Shown here in pieces: positions 4,218-33,371 of a stretch of DNA of 64,000 bases. The notes below the pieces were generated by a model, which saw only the letters and a list, made by a program, of their open reading frames with translations, had not been told where the DNA came from and made no database searches. The position numbers were made by a program, and so were the translations under genes. The stretch comes from an uncultured delta proteobacterium (GTDB taxonomy: Bacteria; Myxococcota; UBA727; VGSZ01): the NCBI GenBank assembly GCA_963775425.1, contig CAVZJB010000004.1, positions 96,001 through 160,000 on the forward strand, given 5' to 3'. Positions within the stretch are counted from its first letter, which is position 1. Each line of letters opens with the position of its first letter.

Positions 4218-6015
4218 CGGGCCGCGCGCTCGCCCCCGGGCGCTTGAAGCACACGTAGGTCGCGGTCGCGGGCGGACCGGCGTCGACCTCGAAGCGCGCC
4301 GCTACCTTCAGCCCGTGGTCGCCGAGCGCCCCGGCGAGGTCGCCTTCGATGAGCGCCGCGCGGTGCACGACGACGGCCGCCCGGCACACCCGCGCCGCCT
4401 CCGCGAGCGCCGCGCGCCGGTCCGGGACGCGCACAGCCCCGTCAGCGACGACGACGATGTCGAAGCTCTCATCCGCGAACGGCAAGCGCGTCGGGGACGC
4501 GGCGAGCGCGCGAAGCGGCGCGTCCGCGGGCGCGCCCCCGCCGCGCTCCGGCGGGGTGGCGTCGACACGGGTGATGCGCAGCTCGTGCCCGAGCAGCGCG
4601 AACAGCGCCTCGCCCGCCGGCCCGCCCGCGCGCGAGGCGTCCGCGCCCGCGTCCAGGCCCACCGTGAGGATGGCGTCGCGCGCGTGGCCCGTGCGCGCGA
4701 CGGCTTCGGCCAGCGCGCGGAACGCGACGCCCGGCCGTCCCATGTGGAGCTCGTAGAGCGCTTCGTCGTCGCTGCCGGCGCCGAAGGCACCGCTTCGGCC
4801 CGCGAGGCGAGCGAGCGAGCGAGCGAGCCGCGCACGATCCAGCGCGGCGCGCAGCGAGTCCGGCAGGGCGCGCGCGAGGACCCGCGCGGCGCGCTCGAGC
4901 GGGGCGCGCCGCGCGGCACCGAGGCCGACGCGGCCGCGGCGCGGGGGCCGATCCGCCAACAGCCCGGTGAGGAGCGGCAACGCCTCGGCAGCGCGCCGCT
5001 CGTACGTGTGATCGCGCAGCGTCCTTCGCTGCCCGGCCGCGGCGATCGCCGCGCGCTCCGCCGGGTGGTCGAGGAGCCAGCGGGCCTTGTCCGCGCACTC
5101 CTCGGCGCTCCGCCACGTCACCACCTCCTCGTCCGGCGAAAACAGCGAAGGCAGAGAGGGCTTCCTGTCCGTCAACAGCAGCGCGCCCATGCCGGTGGCC
5201 TCGAAGAGCCTCATGTTGTTCGCGAACCCGAGGGCGAAGGGTGCGTGCCGGTTCCACGCGACGCGCGCCTCGGCCAACAACGCGTACATCTCATTGCCCC
5301 AGGCCGCTCCGCGGTACCGCGCGCGCGCCGCCGGCCCCTCCGGCGGCGCCGGACCGTACAGCTCCACCCCCGGCACGGCGGCGACGAGGGTCTCGAGCGT
5401 GGCCGCGGCGCCCCCGTGGACGCCGCGCATGCCGCCGACAAAGACCACGTCCCGCTCCCTCGGTCGTGCGCCGATCTCGGCGAGCAGGCAGGGGTCGAAC
5501 GCCAACGGCACGTAACGGGCTCGACCCCCGAGGCGCGCGAACCAATCGACGAAGTGCGGCAAGGAGCTGACGAGCGCGTCGTACGGGCCGATGTCCACGT
5601 GCCTCGAGAGCGCCGCGGCCACCTGCCCCACCACGACCGCGCCGCGCGACGAGGCGCGACGGAGCACCTCGCTGGAGACGGCCTCGATGTCCAGGACCCA
5701 GACGACGTCCGGGCCCGCCGCGGAGAGCTGGGCGTCGAGGACGGCGGCGAGCGCCTGGCGCGGTGAAGGAGGCAGCGCGACGTCGTGCTCGATGGCCCAG
5801 CGCGCCTGGAGCGGGAGGCAGTTCGCGACGACGTCGGAGGCTTCGACGTCACCCCGCTGCGAAAACGCGCGCGACATGAAGTCCGACGTCCCGAAACGCG
5901 CCGCCACGATGGCCCGCAGTTGCGCCTCGTACGAGCCGCTGCGGCGCGCGGCGCCGGACCGGTAGAGCGCGGCGAGGAACGGCGCGTAGTTGGTGTCGAC
6001 GAACACGATCTTCAT
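4207..6015 (-). CDS. Glycosyltransferase (CgeB/Glyco_trans_1_2-like) fused to a degenerate methyltransferase domain
   Basis: ANNMRLFEATGMGALLLTD, AAAGQRRTLRDHTYERR; C-terminal LPFADESFDIVV...ALAEAARV. Confidence 0.75.
   Translation of the reverse strand: MKIVFVDTNYAPFLAALYRSGAARRSGSYEAQLRAIVAARFGTSDFMSRAFSQRGDVEASDVVANCLPLQARWAIEHDVALPPSPRQALAAVLDAQLSAAGPDVVWVLDIEAVSSEVLRRASSRGAVVVGQVAAALSRHVDIGPYDALVSSLPHFVDWFARLGGRARYVPLAFDPCLLAEIGARPRERDVVFVGGMRGVHGGAAATLETLVAAVPGVELYGPAPPEGPAARARYRGAAWGNEMYALLAEARVAWNRHAPFALGFANNMRLFEATGMGALLLTDRKPSLPSLFSPDEEVVTWRSAEECADKARWLLDHPAERAAIAAAGQRRTLRDHTYERRAAEALPLLTGLLADRPPRRGRVGLGAARRAPLERAARVLARALPDSLRAALDRARLARSLARLAGRSGAFGAGSDDEALYELHMGRPGVAFRALAEAVARTGHARDAILTVGLDAGADASRAGGPAGEALFALLGHELRITRVDATPPERGGGAPADAPLRALAASPTRLPFADESFDIVVVADGAVRVPDRRAALAEAARVCRAAVVVHRAALIEGDLAGALGDHGLKVAARFEVDAGPPATATYVCFKRPGASARPVTA
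4807..4826 (+). repeat. (GCGA)5 tetranucleotide simple sequence repeat inside the glycosyltransferase-methyltransferase linker
   Basis: gcgagcgagcgagcgagcga read directly. Confidence 0.85.
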
Positions 6016-17883: not shown

Positions 17884-19296
<1,413 letters not shown>

Positions 19297-19325
19297 ACGT
19301 GCCGCATCCTACACGGCGGCGCCGC

Positions 19326-20966
<1,641 letters not shown>

Positions 20967-21036
20967 CGGCGCCCCGGTCGGGACCCGCGGTGGAGGCGAC
21001 CGCGGCGACCGGGGAGCGCGACCAGGCGTGGCGGAG

Positions 21037-22242
21037 CTACTGGATCGTGGAGGCAATCGTAAAGATCGGGAGGTACATGGCGACGAGGAAGCCGCCGAGC
21101 ACGACGGCCAGGAACACCATGATGATCGGCTCGAGGAGGGACGTCAGGCCGGCGACGGCGGCGTCGACCTCTTCCTCGTAGAAGTCCGCGATCTTGTTCA
21201 GCATGGTGTCGAGCGCACCCGCGCTCTCACCGATGGCCACCATCTGACAGACCATGGAGGGGAAGATCTTGGTCTCCGCCATCGGCTCCGCCAGCGTCTT
21301 GCCTTCCGCCACGCGCTTGCGCGAGTAGGAGATCGCATCGCCGACGACGACGTTGCCGGACGCGCGCGCGACGATGTCGAGAGCGTCGAGGATGGGGACG
21401 CCGGAGCTCAGCATGGTGCCCATGGTGCGCGTGAAGCGGGCGACCGCGCTCTTTCTGATGAGCGGGCCGAAGATGGGCAAGCCGAGAAAGACCTGATCGA
21501 GCATGCGCCGGCCGCGCGGGGAGCGCCGGAACGCGTTGAAGATGACGATCAGGATGGGCGGGCCGAAGACGAACACGTACCAGTGATCCGTCGACCACTG
21601 CGACAGGTCGATGACCATCTGCGTCGGCACCGGCAGCGCGCTGCCGAAGTCGGCGAACATCTTCTTGAACACCGGGATCACGAAGAGCAAGAGCACCGCG
21701 ATGGCGCCGATGGCGACCGTCATGACGGCGATGGGATAGAAGAGCGCGCCCTTGATCTGCTTCGCGAGCTTGACGGACTTCTCCGTCTGCATCGCGAGAC
21801 GCGTCATGATGGTGTCGAGGATACCGCCCGTCTCGCCGGCGGCGACGAGGTTGACGAAGAGGGGATCGAACACCTTGGGGTGGCGCGACAACGCGTCCGC
21901 GAACGTCTTGCCTTGCTCGACGTCGCTCTTGACCTGGCCGAGCACCTTCTTGAACCAGATGTTCTCGTTTTGCGAGTGCAGGATGTCGAGGCACTGCACC
22001 AGCGGCAGGCCCGCGTCGATCATCGTCGAGAACTGGCGGGTGAAGAGCATCAGGTCGCGGGTGCTGACGCCGCTCGACCCGGGGATCTTGAAGTGGAGCT
22101 CCGCCGGCTTCTTCTTCACCTTCGTGGGCTGGAGCTGCTGCGCGCGCAGGCGCTGCTCGACCATGTCCGCGGTAGCGGCTTCCATCTCGCCGTTGCGGAG
22201 CTCTCCGGTCTTGCTCTTGGCCGTCCAAACAAAGAGGGGCAT
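21037..22242 (-). CDS. pilC: Type IV pilus platform protein
   Basis: FTRQFSTMIDAGLPLVQCL, AGETGGILD, GESAGALDTML, LLEP, MYLPIF. Confidence 0.96.
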   Translation of the reverse strand: MPLFVWTAKSKTGELRNGEMEAATADMVEQRLRAQQLQPTKVKKKPAELHFKIPGSSGVSTRDLMLFTRQFSTMIDAGLPLVQCLDILHSQNENIWFKKVLGQVKSDVEQGKTFADALSRHPKVFDPLFVNLVAAGETGGILDTIMTRLAMQTEKSVKLAKQIKGALFYPIAVMTVAIGAIAVLLLFVIPVFKKMFADFGSALPVPTQMVIDLSQWSTDHWYVFVFGPPILIVIFNAFRRSPRGRRMLDQVFLGLPIFGPLIRKSAVARFTRTMGTMLSSGVPILDALDIVARASGNVVVGDAISYSRKRVAEGKTLAEPMAETKIFPSMVCQMVAIGESAGALDTMLNKIADFYEEEVDAAVAGLTSLLEPIIMVFLAVVLGGFLVAMYLPIFTIASTIQ

Positions 22243-22375: not shown

Positions 22376-23521
22376 TCAGCGCCCCCGCGCCTGGCGGCCC
22401 GCGTTCGCCGGCGGCGGCGCTCCCCCGGCGGCGATGCCGTTTTGGATGAGCATCTGGCGGAACTCGTCGATCTCGGAGCAGCGCCCGAGCGCCTCGTCGA
22501 CGGAGATCATCTTTCGCTGCACCAGGCTCAACAGCGACTGGTTCAGCGTGAGCATGCCGTAGCGGTTCTGGCCGACCTGCATCTGCGAGTAGATCTGGTG
22601 GACCTTGTCTTCCCGGATGAGGTTCCGGATGGCCACGTTGGGGATCATGATCTCGAGCGCGAGCACGCGGCCGTTGCCGCCGAGCTTGGGGATGAGCTGC
22701 TGCGACAGCACGGCCTCGAGGACGAAGCTGAGGTTCGCGCGGATCTGCGCCTGCTGATACGGCGGGAAGACGTCGATGATGCGGTTGATGGTCTGCACGG
22801 CGCCGTTGGTGTGCAGCGTGGCGAACGCGAGGTGACCGGTCTCCGCGATGATCAGCGCCGCCTCGATGGTCTCGAGGTCGCGCATCTCGCCGATGAGCAC
22901 GACGTCGGGGTCCTGGCGCAGCACGTACTTGAGCGCCTTCTTGAAGTTGTCCGTGTCGGCACCGACCTCGCGCTGGTTGACGATGGAGCTCTTGTGCGGG
23001 TGCAGGTACTCGATGGGGTCTTCGATGGTGAGGATGTGGTAGTGGCCCTCCTGGTTGATCTTGTCGATGATCGACGCGAGCGTCGTCGACTTGCCCGACC
23101 CCGTGGGCCCCGTGCACAACACCAGTCCGCGCGGGCGATCGGCGATGTCGTTGACCACCGGCGGCAGCCCCAGCTCCTGGAACGTGAGGATCTTGAACGG
23201 GATGGTCCGGAACGCCGCGGCCACCGCGCCGCGCTGCATGAACAGGTTGGCGCGGAAGCGGGCCAGCGACTTCACGCCGAAGGAGAGGTCGAGCTCGTTT
23301 TCCTCCTCGAACTTGTGCTTCTGCGCGTCGGTGAGGATGGAGTAGCACAGCTGCTTGGTGTCCACCGGCGACAGCGGCGGCACCTTGAGCGGCACCAGGT
23401 CGCCGTCGATGCGCAACTGCGGCGGTGTGCCGGTGGTGATGTGGAGGTCGCTGGCCCCCTTTTCGATCATCGCCTTCAGCAACTGGTGCAGATTCACCGG
23501 GGGCGCGGGCTGGCTCATCAA
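22376..23521 (-). CDS. pilT: Type IV pilus retraction ATPase
   Basis: GASDLH, GPTGSGKSTT, TIEDPIE, LRQDPD, GEMRD, AETGH, AIRNLIRE. Confidence 0.97.
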   Translation of the reverse strand: MMSQPAPPVNLHQLLKAMIEKGASDLHITTGTPPQLRIDGDLVPLKVPPLSPVDTKQLCYSILTDAQKHKFEEENELDLSFGVKSLARFRANLFMQRGAVAAAFRTIPFKILTFQELGLPPVVNDIADRPRGLVLCTGPTGSGKSTTLASIIDKINQEGHYHILTIEDPIEYLHPHKSSIVNQREVGADTDNFKKALKYVLRQDPDVVLIGEMRDLETIEAALIIAETGHLAFATLHTNGAVQTINRIIDVFPPYQQAQIRANLSFVLEAVLSQQLIPKLGGNGRVLALEIMIPNVAIRNLIREDKVHQIYSQMQVGQNRYGMLTLNQSLLSLVQRKMISVDEALGRCSEIDEFRQMLIQNGIAAGGAPPPANAGRQARGR

Positions 23522-23582: not shown

Positions 23583-25307
<1,725 letters not shown>

Positions 25308-25360
25308 ACGGGGCTCCTTCAGACGTCTTTCGGTTCGGGCATCCTAGACCAGATCCTGCG

Positions 25361-25984
25361 TCACGTGCGGCGGCGGACCAGGAGGCGCGCACCGTACGCT
25401 CCCTCGTCACGCGCGACGTCGAGGCTCGGTGTGCGAGCAAGCGCTTCGGCGGCCGCGGGGTGCGCGTGCGCCGGGTAGGTCCACGCCGGAACCCACACGC
25501 GGTCGCGGCGACGTTTGAGGTGCACGATCCCACGCTCCTTCGCGGGATCGAGGCGCGCCGCCGACGCGAACCCCGCGAGCGCGGCGCCGATGCGCTCCGG
25601 CAACAGCGCGGGGCCGCACGACGTGGGCACGCCGTCGAACCGGACGAGCAGCACCTGGCTGCCGAAGCCGCCGTCGAGGAAGGACACGGCGACGTCCGCG
25701 GCTCCCGCGCGAATGACGCCGGCCGCGGCCCGCGCCCGCAGGTGCGCTTCGAGCGGCGCGTGCACCTTGCGCGGCGGCGACATCACCTCGCGCCACGTGC
25801 CGTCGATGCGGTACCAGACCAGCAGCTCGCGCGGCCGCGGCTCGATGAGCGCCTCCGCCGCGTCCTGCAGACGCATGTCGGTGAGGATGAAGCCCACGAG
25901 CTCCGCCATCGGGCCGCGGCTCCGGCGCGGCCGCAGCCCGTCGCCGACGAGGTTCGGACGAACGAGGAGCTCACCACGGCGCAT
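25361..25984 (-). CDS. Truncated PilB-like protein (N-terminal motif plus N2 domain, no ATPase)
   Basis: Strong RBS AGGAGGT before the ATG; RRGELLVRPNL, LIEP...YRIDG...EVM.PP and VS...FG..V segments align with the adjacent PilB. Confidence 0.7.
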   Translation of the reverse strand: MRRGELLVRPNLVGDGLRPRRSRGPMAELVGFILTDMRLQDAAEALIEPRPRELLVWYRIDGTWREVMSPPRKVHAPLEAHLRARAAAGVIRAGAADVAVSFLDGGFGSQVLLVRFDGVPTSCGPALLPERIGAALAGFASAARLDPAKERGIVHLKRRRDRVWVPAWTYPAHAHPAAAEALARTPSLDVARDEGAYGARLLVRRRT

Positions 25985-26119
25985 GCTCACCTCCTGTGCG
26001 CTGACGCTAGCCCCTGTGACCGAGATCACGCGATGCCGGCTCAAAGAGAGACAAGACGCGCGAAGAAGCGTGATCGAACAAGCACTTGCGCGACGAGCCT
26101 CCGCGGCGGCGGGCGCGGC

Positions 26120-26944
26120 TCAGACCCGCGCGGCGAGCGCGCGGCGCATGGCGCCGGCGGCGGCGTCGGGGAGGGGCGCGTTCAAGAACAGCGACAGCGC
26201 GGCCTGCGCCTGCGCGAGCAGCATCAGGGTGCCATCGACGAACAGGTGCCCCGCGCCGAGCGCCGCGTCTCGGCTCGGCCGCGCGGCGGCCCCGTAGCGC
26301 AGCTCGTGCACCGCGCCCGGTCCGGCGAGCGCGCGCGCGATGGCGGCGGCGGGGTCGTCGAGGGCGGACGCCGCGAGGACGGCCACCGACGCGCCGCAGG
26401 GCTCGTCGGCGGCGATGCCCTCGAGGCCCAGCGACGCGGCGAGGGCAACGAGGCCGTTGGCCCGCGCCGCGGAGCGGGCGTGGACGACGACGCCGCGGGC
26501 GCCCGCTTGCTGTGCGGCGACGACGACGGCGCGGGCCGCGCCGCCGGCGCCGACGACGGCGACGGTGCGCCCCTCGATGTGCAACGCCGATCGCTTCCAG
26601 GCGAACAGGAGGCCGCCGACGTCGGTGTTGGCGGCGAGCACGGCGTGACGGCGCGCGTCGTCGCCTTCGGCGAACACCACGGTGTTGACCGCGCCCGTCG
26701 CGCGCGCGTCGTCGTCGAGGACGGCGGCGAAGCGGGCGGCGGCGGCGACCTTGTACGGTGCGGTGACGTTGATGCCGCCGCAGCGGGCCTCGGCCTCGTC
26801 CAGGACGACCGCGAGCTCGTCGGCGGTGCACGGCTGCAGCAGGTAGCGCGGCGGCTCCCCCATGGCGGCGAGCGCGGCGTTGTGCATCGCGGGCGACGGC
26901 GAGCGCGCGATGTCGTCGCCGACGAGCCACAGCGGCGCGGTCAC
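26120..26944 (-). CDS. aroE: Shikimate dehydrogenase
   Basis: SPSPAMHN, NVTAPYK, GAVNT, NTDVGG, GAGGAARA, DGTLMLLAQA. Confidence 0.88.
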   Translation of the reverse strand: MTAPLWLVGDDIARSPSPAMHNAALAAMGEPPRYLLQPCTADELAVVLDEAEARCGGINVTAPYKVAAAARFAAVLDDDARATGAVNTVVFAEGDDARRHAVLAANTDVGGLLFAWKRSALHIEGRTVAVVGAGGAARAVVVAAQQAGARGVVVHARSAARANGLVALAASLGLEGIAADEPCGASVAVLAASALDDPAAAIARALAGPGAVHELRYGAAARPSRDAALGAGHLFVDGTLMLLAQAQAALSLFLNAPLPDAAAGAMRRALAARV

Positions 26945-27855
26945 GCAAGGGCCCGGCGCGCGTCGACGATGTCGCGCGCGATCTGCGCCTTCAGCGCGTC
27001 GATGCTCGGGAAGCGCATCTCATCGCGCACGCGCGCCACGACGTCGAGATGCAGGCGCGTGCCGTAGAGGTCGCCGTCGAAGCCGAGCAGGTGGGCCTCG
27101 ATGTGCACGCCGGTGACGCCGGCGAAGGTGGGGCGCAGGCCGATGTTCGTCACGCTGTCGAAGGTGCGCCCGTCGTGAACGACGGCCCGCGTGGCGTACA
27201 CCCCGAGGCGCGGCAACAGCTCGCGCGCGGTGCGCAGGTTGGCGGTGGGCACGCCGATGGTGCGGCCGCGGCTGTCGCCGTGCACCACCTCGCCCTCGAG
27301 CCAATAGGGCCGGCCGAGCAGGCGCGACGCCGCGTCCACCTTGCCCGCGAGCACCAGCTCGCGGATCTTGGACGAGCTGCACACGAGGTCGCCCTCGCGC
27401 ACCGGCGGCACCACCTCGACGACGGAGAGCGCCGCGCGCAAGACCTCGGCGGTGCCGGTGGCGCGGTGGCCGAAGCGGAACCCCTCGCCGACCACGGCAC
27501 CGGCGGCGCCGAGGTGCGAGACGAGGACGCCGTCGGTGAAGTCGTCGGCGGACATGGCCGCCAGCGCCGCGTCGAAGCGCAGCACCCGCAGGACGTCGAT
27601 GCCGGCGGCGGCGATGCCCTGCTCCTTCTCCTCCTCGGTGAGGATCAACTGCGGCGCGAGCGCGGGGTTCAAGACGCGCGCGGGGTGCGGCGAGAAGGTA
27701 AGCACCCCCGACATCGCGCCGCGCGCCGCGGCGACGTCGCGGGCGCGGGCGAAGAGCGCCTGGTGCCCGCGGTGCAGCCCGTCGAAGTTGCCGATGGCCC
27801 ACACCGCGCCGCGCGCGTCGTCGGGGAAGGCGTCCTCATCGCGGAAGGTGCGCAT
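26941..27855 (-). CDS. ribF: Bifunctional riboflavin kinase/FAD synthetase
   Basis: IGNFDGLHRGHQ, TFSPHP, SSSKIR, GRTIGVPTAN, NIGLRPTF, EAHLL. Confidence 0.95.
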   Translation of the reverse strand: MRTFRDEDAFPDDARGAVWAIGNFDGLHRGHQALFARARDVAAARGAMSGVLTFSPHPARVLNPALAPQLILTEEEKEQGIAAAGIDVLRVLRFDAALAAMSADDFTDGVLVSHLGAAGAVVGEGFRFGHRATGTAEVLRAALSVVEVVPPVREGDLVCSSSKIRELVLAGKVDAASRLLGRPYWLEGEVVHGDSRGRTIGVPTANLRTARELLPRLGVYATRAVVHDGRTFDSVTNIGLRPTFAGVTGVHIEAHLLGFDGDLYGTRLHLDVVARVRDEMRFPSIDALKAQIARDIVDARRALA

Positions 27856-27950
27856 GCGCTTGCGTAGCGGTCCACGGCAGCAAAGCAACCCCGGCCCCGC
27901 GGTGACGGGCGGGCGCCGGCGCGGGTGGGTTTCCGGCTACACTCCGCGCC

Positions 27951-28547
27951 ATGCGCACCCCGCTCCTCCTCGCCGCCCTCGCGCTCGCCGCGTGCGGCAC
28001 GCTGCAAAACGGCGCCGAGAGCATCCTCAAGCCGTCGATGGTCTCGCCGCAGTTCAAGGACCTCGACGCCCCCAAGAGGAACCCGTTCGCGCAGGCCCGC
28101 TCGCGCGTCCAGGTGCTGAAGGTGGGCATCCGCAACTACGACACGTTCTTCCAGGACTCCTCCGAGGTGAAGGGCACCGTGGTGCTCGCCGACGTCGTCC
28201 TCAACGAGTCGGACACGTTCATCGCCAACACCAAGAAGTCGGTGAAGCAAAAACGGGAGCTGTCTCCCGCGCAGCAGGCCGCGGTGAAGAAGGAGCAGCA
28301 GCGGGTGGCGGCGCTGCAACAGCTCCTCACGGGCCTGCCCGCGCGCTCGGGCAAGCTCATCGGCGACGGCAACGGCCTGAGCAAGAACGCGGCGAGGACG
28401 TTCGTGGGGCCGAACGCGCTCAAGCTCCCGGGCGTGGTCAAGGGGCTCGAGCAGTCGCTGGCCGACCTGCGCTCCGCCACCCAGAAGGCGCCCGGTCTCC
28501 TCTCTCACGCCGAACGGACCAGCGCGGCGCTCACGACGCTGCGCTGA
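27951..28547 (+). CDS. Hypothetical lipoprotein
   Basis: Signal peptide with lipobox LAAC; coding-like GC3 codon usage. Confidence 0.7.
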   Translation: MRTPLLLAALALAACGTLQNGAESILKPSMVSPQFKDLDAPKRNPFAQARSRVQVLKVGIRNYDTFFQDSSEVKGTVVLADVVLNESDTFIANTKKSVKQKRELSPAQQAAVKKEQQRVAALQQLLTGLPARSGKLIGDGNGLSKNAARTFVGPNALKLPGVVKGLEQSLADLRSATQKAPGLLSHAERTSAALTTLR

Positions 28548-30318: not shown

Positions 30319-31668
30319 TTGGTGCGCATCGGGCTCCGCAATCCAACGACGACGTCGCGCGGCGCCGTCACCGGCGAGAAGGTCGACGGCGGGCCGGTCA
30401 TCGACGAGCAGACGACGCCCGGCGGCCGGCCGGCGCCGCCGCCCACCCAGGAGCAGCCGGCCGCCACCGCGGTCACGCAGGAGTCGAAGGCCGCCGCGCA
30501 GGCGCGCTTCAAGAACGATCCGCGGGCGCGCTTCGTCGAGCACACGCTGCGCTCCGGCGAAGCCGACGTCGACAGGTCGAGCGCCACCGGCGCAGGCAAG
30601 GTGCCGGCGCCGCCGGCCGTGACGTACAAGACCGTCGCGGACGCCAAGGCCGCCATCGAGAAGAAGTACGGCGTCACCATCGACACGAGCGGGAAGCCGT
30701 GGACCGCCGAGGAGCTCACCCGCGTCGACGGCGCGTGGTCGAAGATGAGCGCGACGGATCGCGAGGCGCTGCGCGGCCTCACCGTCAAGCGCGCGGCGGA
30801 GGCGCCCGACGACCTGCAGGCCGCCGAGGGCACCGACGTCGTCGCCGGTGTCTACAACGGCAACGTCGAGACCACGAACGGCACCCGGGACCAAAGCGCG
30901 TCCATCACCTACTTCGACGCCGCGTTCCCGCCGGGCAACGGCGACGCGTCGCGACGCACCTCGGAGCACGTGATCCTGCATGAGGCCGGACACGCCGTGG
31001 AGGGGCGCAAGCTCGACGAGGCCGTCGCGGCGCACAACGCCGCCGTCGACGACGAGCAGCAGCCCTCGCGCGACCTGGACCACGCGTTGAAGGCGATGCG
31101 CGAGTCGTTCTACGACGTCGACCACGCCCGTCGCGGCCTGTCGCGCGCGCAGCAGGGCGAGGTGAACGACTTCTACCGCGCGCAACGCGACGTCGACGCC
31201 GCGTCCCACAAGATCAAGGGCGCCAAGGACGCCGCGGCGCTTGCCAAGGCGAACGCGCAGATGGACAGCGCGCTCGCGCGCCTCGACAAGGCCGCCGCCG
31301 GCGTCTCCTCCGACAACCCCGCCGCCGCCGCCATCGCGACGAGCGCTCAAGCCGTGCGGGGCTACGGCGCCGCGTGGGTGGCGTACGGCGGGCCCGCGCT
31401 CGACGAGCGCACGACGCAAAAGACGCAGAACGCCCTCGGCAAGGCGCACAAGGTCCGCGTCGACGGAAAGACCGTCACGCGCTTCACCAGCAACGAGCTC
31501 GCGAGCTTCGAGCGCGGCACCCGCGGTGACAAGGCCGTGTCCGCGTACGGGGCCACGGCACCCGCGGAGAACTACGCCGAGGCGCACGCGCTCTACCGGC
31601 GCGATCCGGCGTACCTGAAGAAGCACTTCCCGAAGACGTATGCATGGTTCGCCAAGCATCATCCGTAG
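30319..31668 (+). CDS. Hypothetical protein with zincin metallopeptidase motif
   Basis: VILHEAGHAVE and distal VSAYG...ENYAEA; RBS AGGAGG; disordered N-terminus. Confidence 0.65.
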   Translation: MVRIGLRNPTTTSRGAVTGEKVDGGPVIDEQTTPGGRPAPPPTQEQPAATAVTQESKAAAQARFKNDPRARFVEHTLRSGEADVDRSSATGAGKVPAPPAVTYKTVADAKAAIEKKYGVTIDTSGKPWTAEELTRVDGAWSKMSATDREALRGLTVKRAAEAPDDLQAAEGTDVVAGVYNGNVETTNGTRDQSASITYFDAAFPPGNGDASRRTSEHVILHEAGHAVEGRKLDEAVAAHNAAVDDEQQPSRDLDHALKAMRESFYDVDHARRGLSRAQQGEVNDFYRAQRDVDAASHKIKGAKDAAALAKANAQMDSALARLDKAAAGVSSDNPAAAAIATSAQAVRGYGAAWVAYGGPALDERTTQKTQNALGKAHKVRVDGKTVTRFTSNELASFERGTRGDKAVSAYGATAPAENYAEAHALYRRDPAYLKKHFPKTYAWFAKHHP

Positions 31669-32138: not shown

Positions 32139-32302
32139 AGCGACCCGTTGGGCCGTGAGCTGCGCCGCGCGGAGCGAGTGGCTCCGGTGTGAACGTCGAC
32201 CGCCGCCGTGTGAAGCGGACCGCGCCGCCGCGCGCCGGCGCGCCAGCGACCCTGGCCCGCGCCTTGCGTTCCAGCACATGAACGCTCGCGCTGGAGGGGT
32301 GC

Positions 32303-33274
32303 ATGCTCGTTGTCGTCGTCGCGGTCTCGGTTGCGTGCGCAGGAGCTTCGATGCCGGACGGCGCTGCGACGACGACGGCGATGACGGCGACGACGGCGAT
32401 GACGGCGACGGCGACGATGACGCCGACGACGACGACGGCGACGGCGCCCGCGACGGCGGCGACGGCGCCCGCTACGGCGGCGACGGCGCCTGTTGCGACG
32501 ACGCCTGCTGCGACGGCGCCTGCTGCGGCGACGACGGCGACGCCAGCGACGACGGCGACGCCAGCGACGACGGCGACGGCGCGTGCTGCGGCGACGCCAA
32601 CGACGACGGCGACGGCGACGGCTGCGGCGACGCCAGCGACGTCGGCGACGGCGCCCGCGACGGCGGCGACGGCGCCCGCGACGGCGGCGACGGCGCCCGC
32701 GACGGCGGCGACGGCGCCTGCTGCGGCGACGCCAGCGACGACGGCGACGCCAGCGACGACGGCGACGCCAGCGACGACGGCGACGCCAGCGACGACGCCG
32801 ACGCCAGCGACGACGGCGCCTGCTGCGGCTGCGACGACGACGACGGCTGCGCACGAGCCCGTGACGGTGGCGCAGAGCGTGCTTGCGGGCGCGGGCGCCG
32901 CGGTCGGTGTCGCCGTGGGCGAGGCCCTGGGCCTGGCCGCGTTCTACGCGCTGTCGTCCGGCATGTCGCCGATCCAGGGGTTCTTGTTCCTCCTCGTCGC
33001 CGGGCCGCCGGCGCTGACATTGCCCGCGCTCGCCCTCGGCACCGCGGGCGCGTCCCTCGGCGCCGCGATCGCCGGCTCGCAGGCGCCGGTCGCCGCGCTC
33101 GCGGCCGGCGCCGTGGGATCGATCGCCGGCGGCGTCGCCACAAGCGCCGGCCTCGCCGCGCTCATCGTCACGAGCTCGGGCTCCGAGACGTCGGTGGCCG
33201 CCGTGGTGGCCGTCGGCGCGGTGGTGGCCGGCGCCGTGACCGCGCTCGGCTTGCCCGTCGTGGCCGGCGACTGA
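32303..33274 (+). CDS. Membrane protein with Thr/Ala/Pro low-complexity stalk
   Basis: Signal-like N-terminus, ~160-aa TAPATAA/TATPAT repeats, several hydrophobic C-terminal helices. Confidence 0.6.
   Translation: MLVVVVAVSVACAGASMPDGAATTTAMTATTAMTATATMTPTTTTATAPATAATAPATAATAPVATTPAATAPAAATTATPATTATPATTATARAAATPTTTATATAAATPATSATAPATAATAPATAATAPATAATAPAAATPATTATPATTATPATTATPATTPTPATTAPAAAATTTTAAHEPVTVAQSVLAGAGAAVGVAVGEALGLAAFYALSSGMSPIQGFLFLLVAGPPALTLPALALGTAGASLGAAIAGSQAPVAALAAGAVGSIAGGVATSAGLAALIVTSSGSETSVAAVVAVGAVVAGAVTALGLPVVAGD
32366..32850 (+). repeat. Imperfect tandem repeats with 18-bp and 21-bp units (e.g. gacggcgacgccagcgac; gacggcgcccgcgacggcggc)
   Basis: Seen directly; encodes the TATPAT/TAPATAA stalk. 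Confidence 0.85.
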
Positions 33275-33371
33275 CCGCTCGTCGACGCGCGGCATCGGAT
33301 GAATGCCCTAGGACATGGGTTGTATCGGGGCGCCGTGCCGCTAGGGTCCGCGGCTTCCGCTCGAGGTGCCC

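Follow-up and report, generated by a model that had tools for sequence, protein, structure and literature searches.

An ATPase-less relative of the pilus extension ATPase PilB with a predicted tandem of N2-type domains, encoded directly upstream of pilB

The main inter-chain contact in the hexamer of the type IV pilus extension ATPase PilB is, according to the accessible text of McCallum et al. (PMC5424180), that of the N2 domain (N2D) of one chain with the C-terminal domain (CTD) of the adjacent chain. This contact buries about 1,600 A2 and forms a "packing unit", and arginines of the N2D detect which nucleotide is in the neighbouring packing unit (PMC5424180). The phage protein Aqs1 binds PilB N2 and breaks the hexamer, and phage Tip, which disables PilB, also maps to the N2 domain (available parts of PMC13436744 and PMC11656802). 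Extension-motor control is known via second messengers, PilZ/FimX, CpiA and phage peptides, as set out in the available portion of a 2024 review of PilB regulators (PMC11656802), in which the terms "decoy" and "dominant negative" have 0 occurrences each. No truncated or ATPase-less PilB paralogue is described in the titles or abstracts returned by a full-text literature search. Within the literature searched, at the level of those titles, abstracts and accessible portions, the N2 domain is known and an ATPase-less tandem-N2 architecture directly before pilB is not described.

The locus reported here lies in a window of 64,000 nucleotides, the whole stretch of DNA that was analysed. A 207-aa open reading frame (ORF) is found ahead of the pilus genes in the one-strand order ribF-aroE-ORF-pilB-pilT-pilC-pilS-pilR, with 53 nt separating its stop codon from the pilB ATG:

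26941-27888, minus strand: ribF.
26120-26944, minus strand: aroE (shikimate dehydrogenase), the upstream neighbour; Pfam Shikimate_dh_N, 1.8e-16; syntenic in 6/7 of the relatives' loci.
25990-25995, minus strand: Shine-Dalgarno sequence AGGAGG, 5 nt before the ATG of the 207-aa ORF, as read from the sequence.
25361-25984, minus strand: coding sequence of the ATPase-less PilB relative (207 aa), with its stop codon at 25361-25363; the only positive-scoring frame of six.
23583-25307, minus strand: pilB, full-length extension ATPase of 574 aa; Pfam T2SSE, 5.4e-137, and MshEN, 3.1e-26.
22376-23521, minus strand: pilT.
21037-22242, minus strand: pilC.
19326-21143, minus strand: PilS-like kinase.
17884-19308, minus strand: PilR-like sigma-54 activator.

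Long spurious ORFs are common in DNA of high G+C content. The G+C of the window is 72%, and the coding signal of the 207-aa ORF was therefore tested. A codon log-odds score trained on 917 long ORFs from this genome gave +0.316 bits/codon for the frame of the ORF and -0.12 to -1.50 for the other five frames; the plus-strand ORFs that overlap it have a shadow pattern, with high GC1 or GC2. Scored by part, the first N2 domain (see below) reaches 0.615, the tail 0.12 and the first 23 codons -0.14, for comparison with 0.580 for aroE, 0.627 for ribF and 0.901 for pilB. GC3 is 0.90 over the whole ORF; in 90-nt windows it runs at 0.9-1.0 from ~25970 to ~25520 (residues ~5-155) and drops to ~0.8 past 25520, over the last ~50 codons. 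The AGGAGG in front of the ATG bears out the strong ribosome-binding site that a first-pass annotation of this DNA had reported. The minus-strand stretch 25361-25984 is a genuine protein-coding gene, with codon adaptation weaker at both ends. A longer, 227-aa version starting at TTG 26044 was rejected, GC3 being only 0.57-0.70 upstream of 25984. Promoter and terminator scans of 25000-26400 gave 0 and 0 sites.

These coding signals bear on a reading that is considered rather improbable: that the gene is a functionless or near-neutral relic, either an N1+N2+N2' gene or a partial pilB duplicate beside pilB, which has lost N1 and drifts, expressed or silent, with no pilus role. The lower codon scores of tail and N-terminus, and the GC3 of the last ~50 codons, are what such a relic might have. 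The intact frame and the consensus ribosome-binding site tell against it; so does the frame-specific GC3 of 0.9-1.0, kept over ~150 codons despite divergence to 39% identity from PilB, because neutral decay to that level should have erased codon periodicity.

Elsewhere in the window, ribF and the gene of an ABC-F ATPase enclose a 198-aa ORF at 27951-28547 (plus strand); its N-terminus (LAAC) resembles that of a lipoprotein, and it matches no Pfam family. A 449-aa ORF at 30319-31668 (plus strand), with a GC3 of 0.94, a strong coding signal, a HEAGH motif of the HExxH type and no Pfam match, may encode an unclassified metalloprotease. At ~32300-33300, on both strands, long repeats are Asp/Gly-rich in one frame and Arg-rich in others; no frame there passes the coding filter.

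The architecture of the 207-aa protein is a 12-aa remnant of the PilB N-terminus followed by N2 and then N2':

25946-25981, minus strand: codons 2-13, what is left of the PilB N-terminus, corresponding to the first half of a single MshEN_N motif; 9/12 residues identical to PilB residues 4-15.
25634-25915, minus strand: N2 domain, residues 24-117; alpha-3beta-alpha-3beta, lacking the RRLPQDGR loop; pLDDT 83-95.
25364-25609, minus strand: N2' domain, residues 126-207, the former "unrelated tail"; predicted degenerate N2-type domain, alpha-3beta-alpha-2beta in both models.

A real gene with this double-N2 architecture is very probable. The first-pass annotation had described a divergent, open, ATPase-less relative of the N-terminal half of PilB, directly upstream of pilB and matched to it in three ordered blocks, and BLASTP, profile and fold comparisons uphold this description. 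Block (a), the N-terminal remnant, matches PilB with a pairwise E=0.02 (BLASTP), and its DNA (25946-25981) is 81% identical to 25263-25298 over 36 nt. Block (b), residues 25-86 against residues 187-248 of the neighbouring PilB, has 24/62 identities (39%) with E=3e-11 (BLASTP). Block (c) gave no BLASTP match but is paired with PilB DYRVSV...FGEKIVMR in the alignment of the family profile (see below) to the PilB profile.

The predicted fold of the protein spans the whole N2 domain. In the AF2 model (17-row alignment; mean pLDDT 76.2) residues 24-116 form a helix, three strands, a helix and three strands. The structural likeness to the PilB N2 domain that was anticipated was found for this first domain: a Foldseek search of the PDB with the model gave 23 matches at E<=0.001, and the 17 matches listed are all EpsE/GspE/PilB/PilF chains, the best E being 1.7e-7 and the identity to Geobacter PilB 34-36%. 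The closest ESM Atlas clusters are T2SSE-labelled proteins of ~130 aa (score 0.90), which is a lead only. The N2 fold is present twice in the model (Foldseek; VIA-align), and both N2-type domains are predicted with a pLDDT of 67-95, which argues against a decaying relic.

The absences noted at first pass are borne out as well: the protein has neither N1 nor the ERRLPQDGR loop nor a Walker/ATPase core. The alignment of the family profile to PilB ends where PilB Walker A starts, and the protein itself stops at residue 207. Pfam at E<=1 lists T2SSE (PF00437) as the sole family, at 17.2 bits against a cut-off of 24.9 and over profile positions 4-69 of 370, with no PilZ; the NCBIfam models TIGR02538 and TIGR02533 score 26.7 bits (cut-off 630) and 20.9 bits (cut-off 676). 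Tblastn of PilB against the six frames of 25200-26200 found no ATPase remnant and no out-of-frame remnant with E<0.3, and a frameshifted pilB pseudogene was rejected on that ground. The arginine of the PilB DYR position is replaced by alanine in the first N2 domain, and the arginine aligned with the PilB "MRLL" stretch is retained. We infer that the N2D arginine numbering in the accessible text of PMC5424180 would map onto these DYR and MRLL columns.

A further hint of the first-pass annotation was c-di-GMP binding, and it proved weak. Residues 2-13, with the N-terminal motif RRGELLV, resemble the first half of the MshEN_N motif RLGxx(L/V/I)(L/V/I)xxG(L/V/I)(L/V/I), which by the accessible text of PMC5013675 binds c-di-GMP through two 24-residue motifs, 53 residues in total. 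The 207-aa protein has the first 12 of these 53 residues and no tandem motifs; the conserved leucine of RLG is arginine, the LxxxLxxQ part is missing, Pfam MshEN (PF05157) has no match at E<=1, and residues 1-19 have a pLDDT <50 in the AF2 model. The 12-residue remnant is accordingly predicted to be disordered, c-di-GMP binding by the protein is unlikely, and a sensor role through RRGELLV is thought extremely improbable.

The C-terminal tail had been taken as unrelated to PilB; it has instead an N2-like fold and is conserved in a small protein family. In the full-length AF2 model residues 125-205 form a helix, three strands, a helix and two strands, a near-repeat of the N2 order. The tail folded alone reaches a pLDDT of 63.9, a modest confidence, and Foldseek with this tail-only model ranks PilF/PilB/EpsE first (E 1.1e-3 to 3e-2). 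VIA-align superposes residues 20-101 of the tail-only model on the N2 ranges of known structures (for instance Geobacter PilB 182-289 and EpsE 103-228). Its first nine rows, all PilB/PilF/EpsE/GspE N2 domains, have Z 8.1-9.6 and rmsd 2.4-3.2 A over 79-84 residues, and the best 13 rows (Z 7.4-9.6) are all extension or secretion ATPase chains over their N2 ranges; PilT N-terminal domains also match, at Z 6.0-6.3. Echoes in sequence are weak. N2' and N2 share 12/36 identities as an internal repeat (E=0.009, BLASTP), and hhalign of the tail alone falls on PilB 204-255 with a probability of 1.3% and E=0.04, a match that is not significant alone. From the VIA-align match to N2 ranges and these echoes, the reading of residues ~126-207 as a second, degenerate N2-type domain is well supported at the level of models. 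The tail was also considered, on the prompting of a MAFFT alignment, as the degenerate start of an ATPase core (beta strand, P-loop, Asp box); this was rejected, as hhalign misses that region and the fold is that of N2.

An exhaustive HMMER search of 1.84 billion representative proteins with the 207-aa protein gave 31 proteins at E<=0.001. The alignment runs over residues 24/26-205/206, tail included, for two of these: P0003 (316 aa) with E=1.2e-14 and P0004 (357 aa) with E=3.4e-10. P0024, a fragment of 166 aa, has its match in the tail only; P0033 (332 aa) was added by a search restricted to the tail. A tail-profile search of longer proteins returned just these four entries and the query. All four are metagenomic and uncharacterised, each entry being one sequence on one contig. 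P0003 shares 61/184 identities with the 207-aa protein (pairwise E=5e-23). In the five-sequence alignment 16 columns are invariant and spread over both domains, with the relatives at 30-34% identity, another point against a relic; the invariant tail residues are F139, R144, P147, W164, T169, A196, G198, R200 and L201. Pfam finds MshEN (N1) in P0003, P0033 and P0004 (4.4e-17 to 3.8e-26) and no ATPase core, and P0003 and P0033 also match the first ~69 T2SSE positions only. The family profile aligns to the PilB profile with a probability of 100% and E=9.1e-43 over 289 columns covering N1 and N2.

Judged from these sequences, the 207-aa gene falls into a very rare family, in which every other full-length member has the order N1+N2+N2'. 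Because the tail is common to these proteins, the gene is part of a small family that existed already, and is more than a fresh truncation of pilB. The N1 of P0004 is very like that of the PilB of this genome, which makes the family a descendant of a PilB of such a kind. The N1 region of the family is replaced in the 207-aa protein by a gap between residues ~13 and 24, and this deletion relative to the other full-length members is among the observations that favour a relic.

The aroE-pilB spacer records how the gene came to its place. In the seven relatives' loci upstream of pilB, tblastn finds the order ribF-aroE-pilB in six, with ~90-160 bp between the aroE and pilB matches. In the exception, L014 (genome G004, contig C56, ~4677-4990), aroE is missing between ribF and pilB, leaving a gap of ~313 bp, and the distal pilB spacer elements are nonetheless retained. 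Two stretches on either side of the 207-aa ORF correspond to the two halves of this spacer:

26003-26030, minus strand: left half of the spacer that ancestrally separated aroE and pilB, today lying upstream of the inserted gene; palindrome GTGATCTCGGTCAC at 26016-26029.
25309-25351, minus strand: right half of that spacer, which has kept its place before pilB; TAGGAT element and pilB ribosome-binding site GAAGGAG.

The left half aligns to positions 20-48 of the L013 spacer and, joined with 25988-26002, to positions 20-61 of the L016 spacer. The right half aligns to L016 spacer positions 78-124 and to similar ranges in L013, L014 and L018. Since the spacer halves flank it, the ORF is an insertion of ~650 bp that replaces the middle of the aroE-pilB spacer. 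The palindrome, with the spacer consensus GTGAYC-N4-GRTCAC, and TAGGAT (25334-25339) are conserved in L013 and L016, and TAGGAT also in L014 and L018; the two are a possible operator and a possible -10 element of pilB, which the inserted gene now splits. At 81% DNA identity to pilB, the 36 nt of the N-terminal stretch point to gene conversion, or to a local duplication, as the origin of that part.

A syntenic homologue between aroE and pilB was looked for and is absent at that position in the relatives examined. The gene occurs in one of 41 related genomes; in the other 40, all non-self matches lie in open frames of at least 375 aa and cover only about residues 15-129. Within its own genome (G000) the protein has two matches, itself and PilB. 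A tail-profile search of 400 further genomes of the phylum gave no convincing tail match: outside the own genome, the 401 genomes yielded 12 weak matches, with 18-23 bits and a per-genome E of 4e-4 to 0.01, and these were treated as noise. A search for homologues of near length returned the protein itself only. Pattern scans were equally sparse: 172 pattern matches in 185,579 species genomes, none convincing; 211 in each of two metagenome contig scans, none confirmed; and 36 in a viral contig scan, none confirmed, with no match by tblastn against phages. One match from the species genomes passed, a 32-residue stretch on a Hymenobacter contig, and was judged due to chance. Presence in a single genome, together with database relatives that are all singletons, suggests that any role is narrow or recent; this restricted occurrence also fits the relic reading.

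A role at the motor can be proposed in outline; the first-pass annotation had named a decoy subunit, an inhibitor or a chaperone of the extension motor as candidates. The 207-aa protein would be a mimic of a PilB subunit, with one or both of its N2-type domains docking on the PilB CTD or, alternatively, on a partner surface that normally sees N2. As N2-on-CTD is the main contact of the PilB hexamer, an N2-only, ATPase-less protein would be well suited to occupy the N2 site and to terminate or loosen the ring; as it brings no ATPase domain, the ring could not grow past it, and it would cap, destabilise or tune the assembly of the extension motor. Action on PilB or the type IV pilus motor through N2-type contacts is a real possibility that falls somewhat short of an even chance. 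The specific form of the proposal, in which a cell-encoded motor-subunit mimic made of N2 domains only enters or caps PilB rings and so sets the rate of pilus extension, is held tentatively and is on balance doubtful. The linkage supports action on the motor: the gene is on the same strand as pilB-pilT-pilC-pilS-pilR and 53 nt ahead of them. Counting against such action, the first N2 domain is 39% identical to PilB N2, compared with 81-91% among PilB orthologues across genera, so that the PilB contact surface may not be preserved; in addition, linkage of the family to pilB is known for one case, that of this genome. A complex prediction of PilB residues 180-574 with residues 20-207 of the protein gave a score of 0.00, with the mark at 0.32, and speaks neither way.

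The N2-type domains of a real protein might also act elsewhere, on PilT, on the PilC/PilM platform or on another secretion ATPase paralogue, or the protein might be a stabilising adaptor or chaperone; this is regarded as unlikely. Potential N2-compatible partners are many, there being 17 T2SSE-family matches in the genome, and the PilT N-terminal domains do match the tail model. N2 pairs are also found fused to unrelated modules in ATPase-less proteins (P0005, T2SSE x2; P0006, Biotin_lipoyl + T2SSE x2). The immediate linkage to pilB points the other way, as do PilB being the only match in the genome besides the protein itself and the 81% DNA identity of its N-terminal 12 residues to pilB. P0005 (640 aa) carries two canonical N2 domains after a long hydrophobic and zinc-ribbon-like region, and P0006 (447 aa) carries two behind a Biotin_lipoyl-like N-terminus; these tandem fusions suggest that N2 is a reusable interaction module.

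If the 207-aa protein acts on the motor, a natural N2-only protein encoded before pilB would offer a direct handle on N2-CTD packing in hexamer assembly and would serve as a template for N2-based inhibitors. [quoted passage not shown] If it is inert, the gene is still a clean example of domain-level birth and loss beside a highly conserved motor gene.

Compared with known systems, the 207-aa protein stands closest to the N2 domains of PilB/GspE-type ATPases (Geobacter metallireducens PilB, 5TSH; Vibrio EpsE, 1P9R; Thermus PilF, 5OIU). Residues 24-117 share fold and sequence with these (Foldseek E 1.7e-7 to 1e-5, ~103-106 aligned columns), and residues 126-207 share the common fold (Z 8.1-9.6). 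Unlike the ATPases, the protein has tandem N2-type domains and lacks the ATPase domain, N1 and the RRLPQDGR loop. The family entries P0003, P0033, P0004 and P0024 resemble it in having an N2 domain without this loop followed by the conserved N2' tail; P0003, P0033 and P0004 differ in that they keep the full MshEN/N1, of which the 207-aa protein keeps only the 12 N-terminal residues.

The best non-self match among the genomes is P0010 (L002 802-2412, minus strand), a degenerate PilB paralogue of a related genus, with 33% identity over residues 22-129. It too is missing the RRLPQDGR loop. Unlike the 207-aa protein it retains N1 and an ATPase core that is full-length and altered (T2SSE 8e-46), lacks N2' and does not neighbour pilB. 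This P0010-like gene of L002 (genome G002, contig C124) has an altered Walker A with a stretch of the ...GGGRSTT type, and its neighbours on the two sides are an AraC-like regulator and an aminopeptidase-like gene; it may be a pseudo-ATPase.

In function, the likeness would be to Aqs1, Tip and Acinetobacter CpiA, small proteins that disable the extension motor; the 207-aa protein may act alike, the likeness being functional and inferred (PMC13436744; PMC11656802). Those three are not described as PilB-derived in the accessible text of these two sources. The 207-aa protein differs from them in that it is itself built of N2 domains, is chromosomal and has no match in the phage collections.
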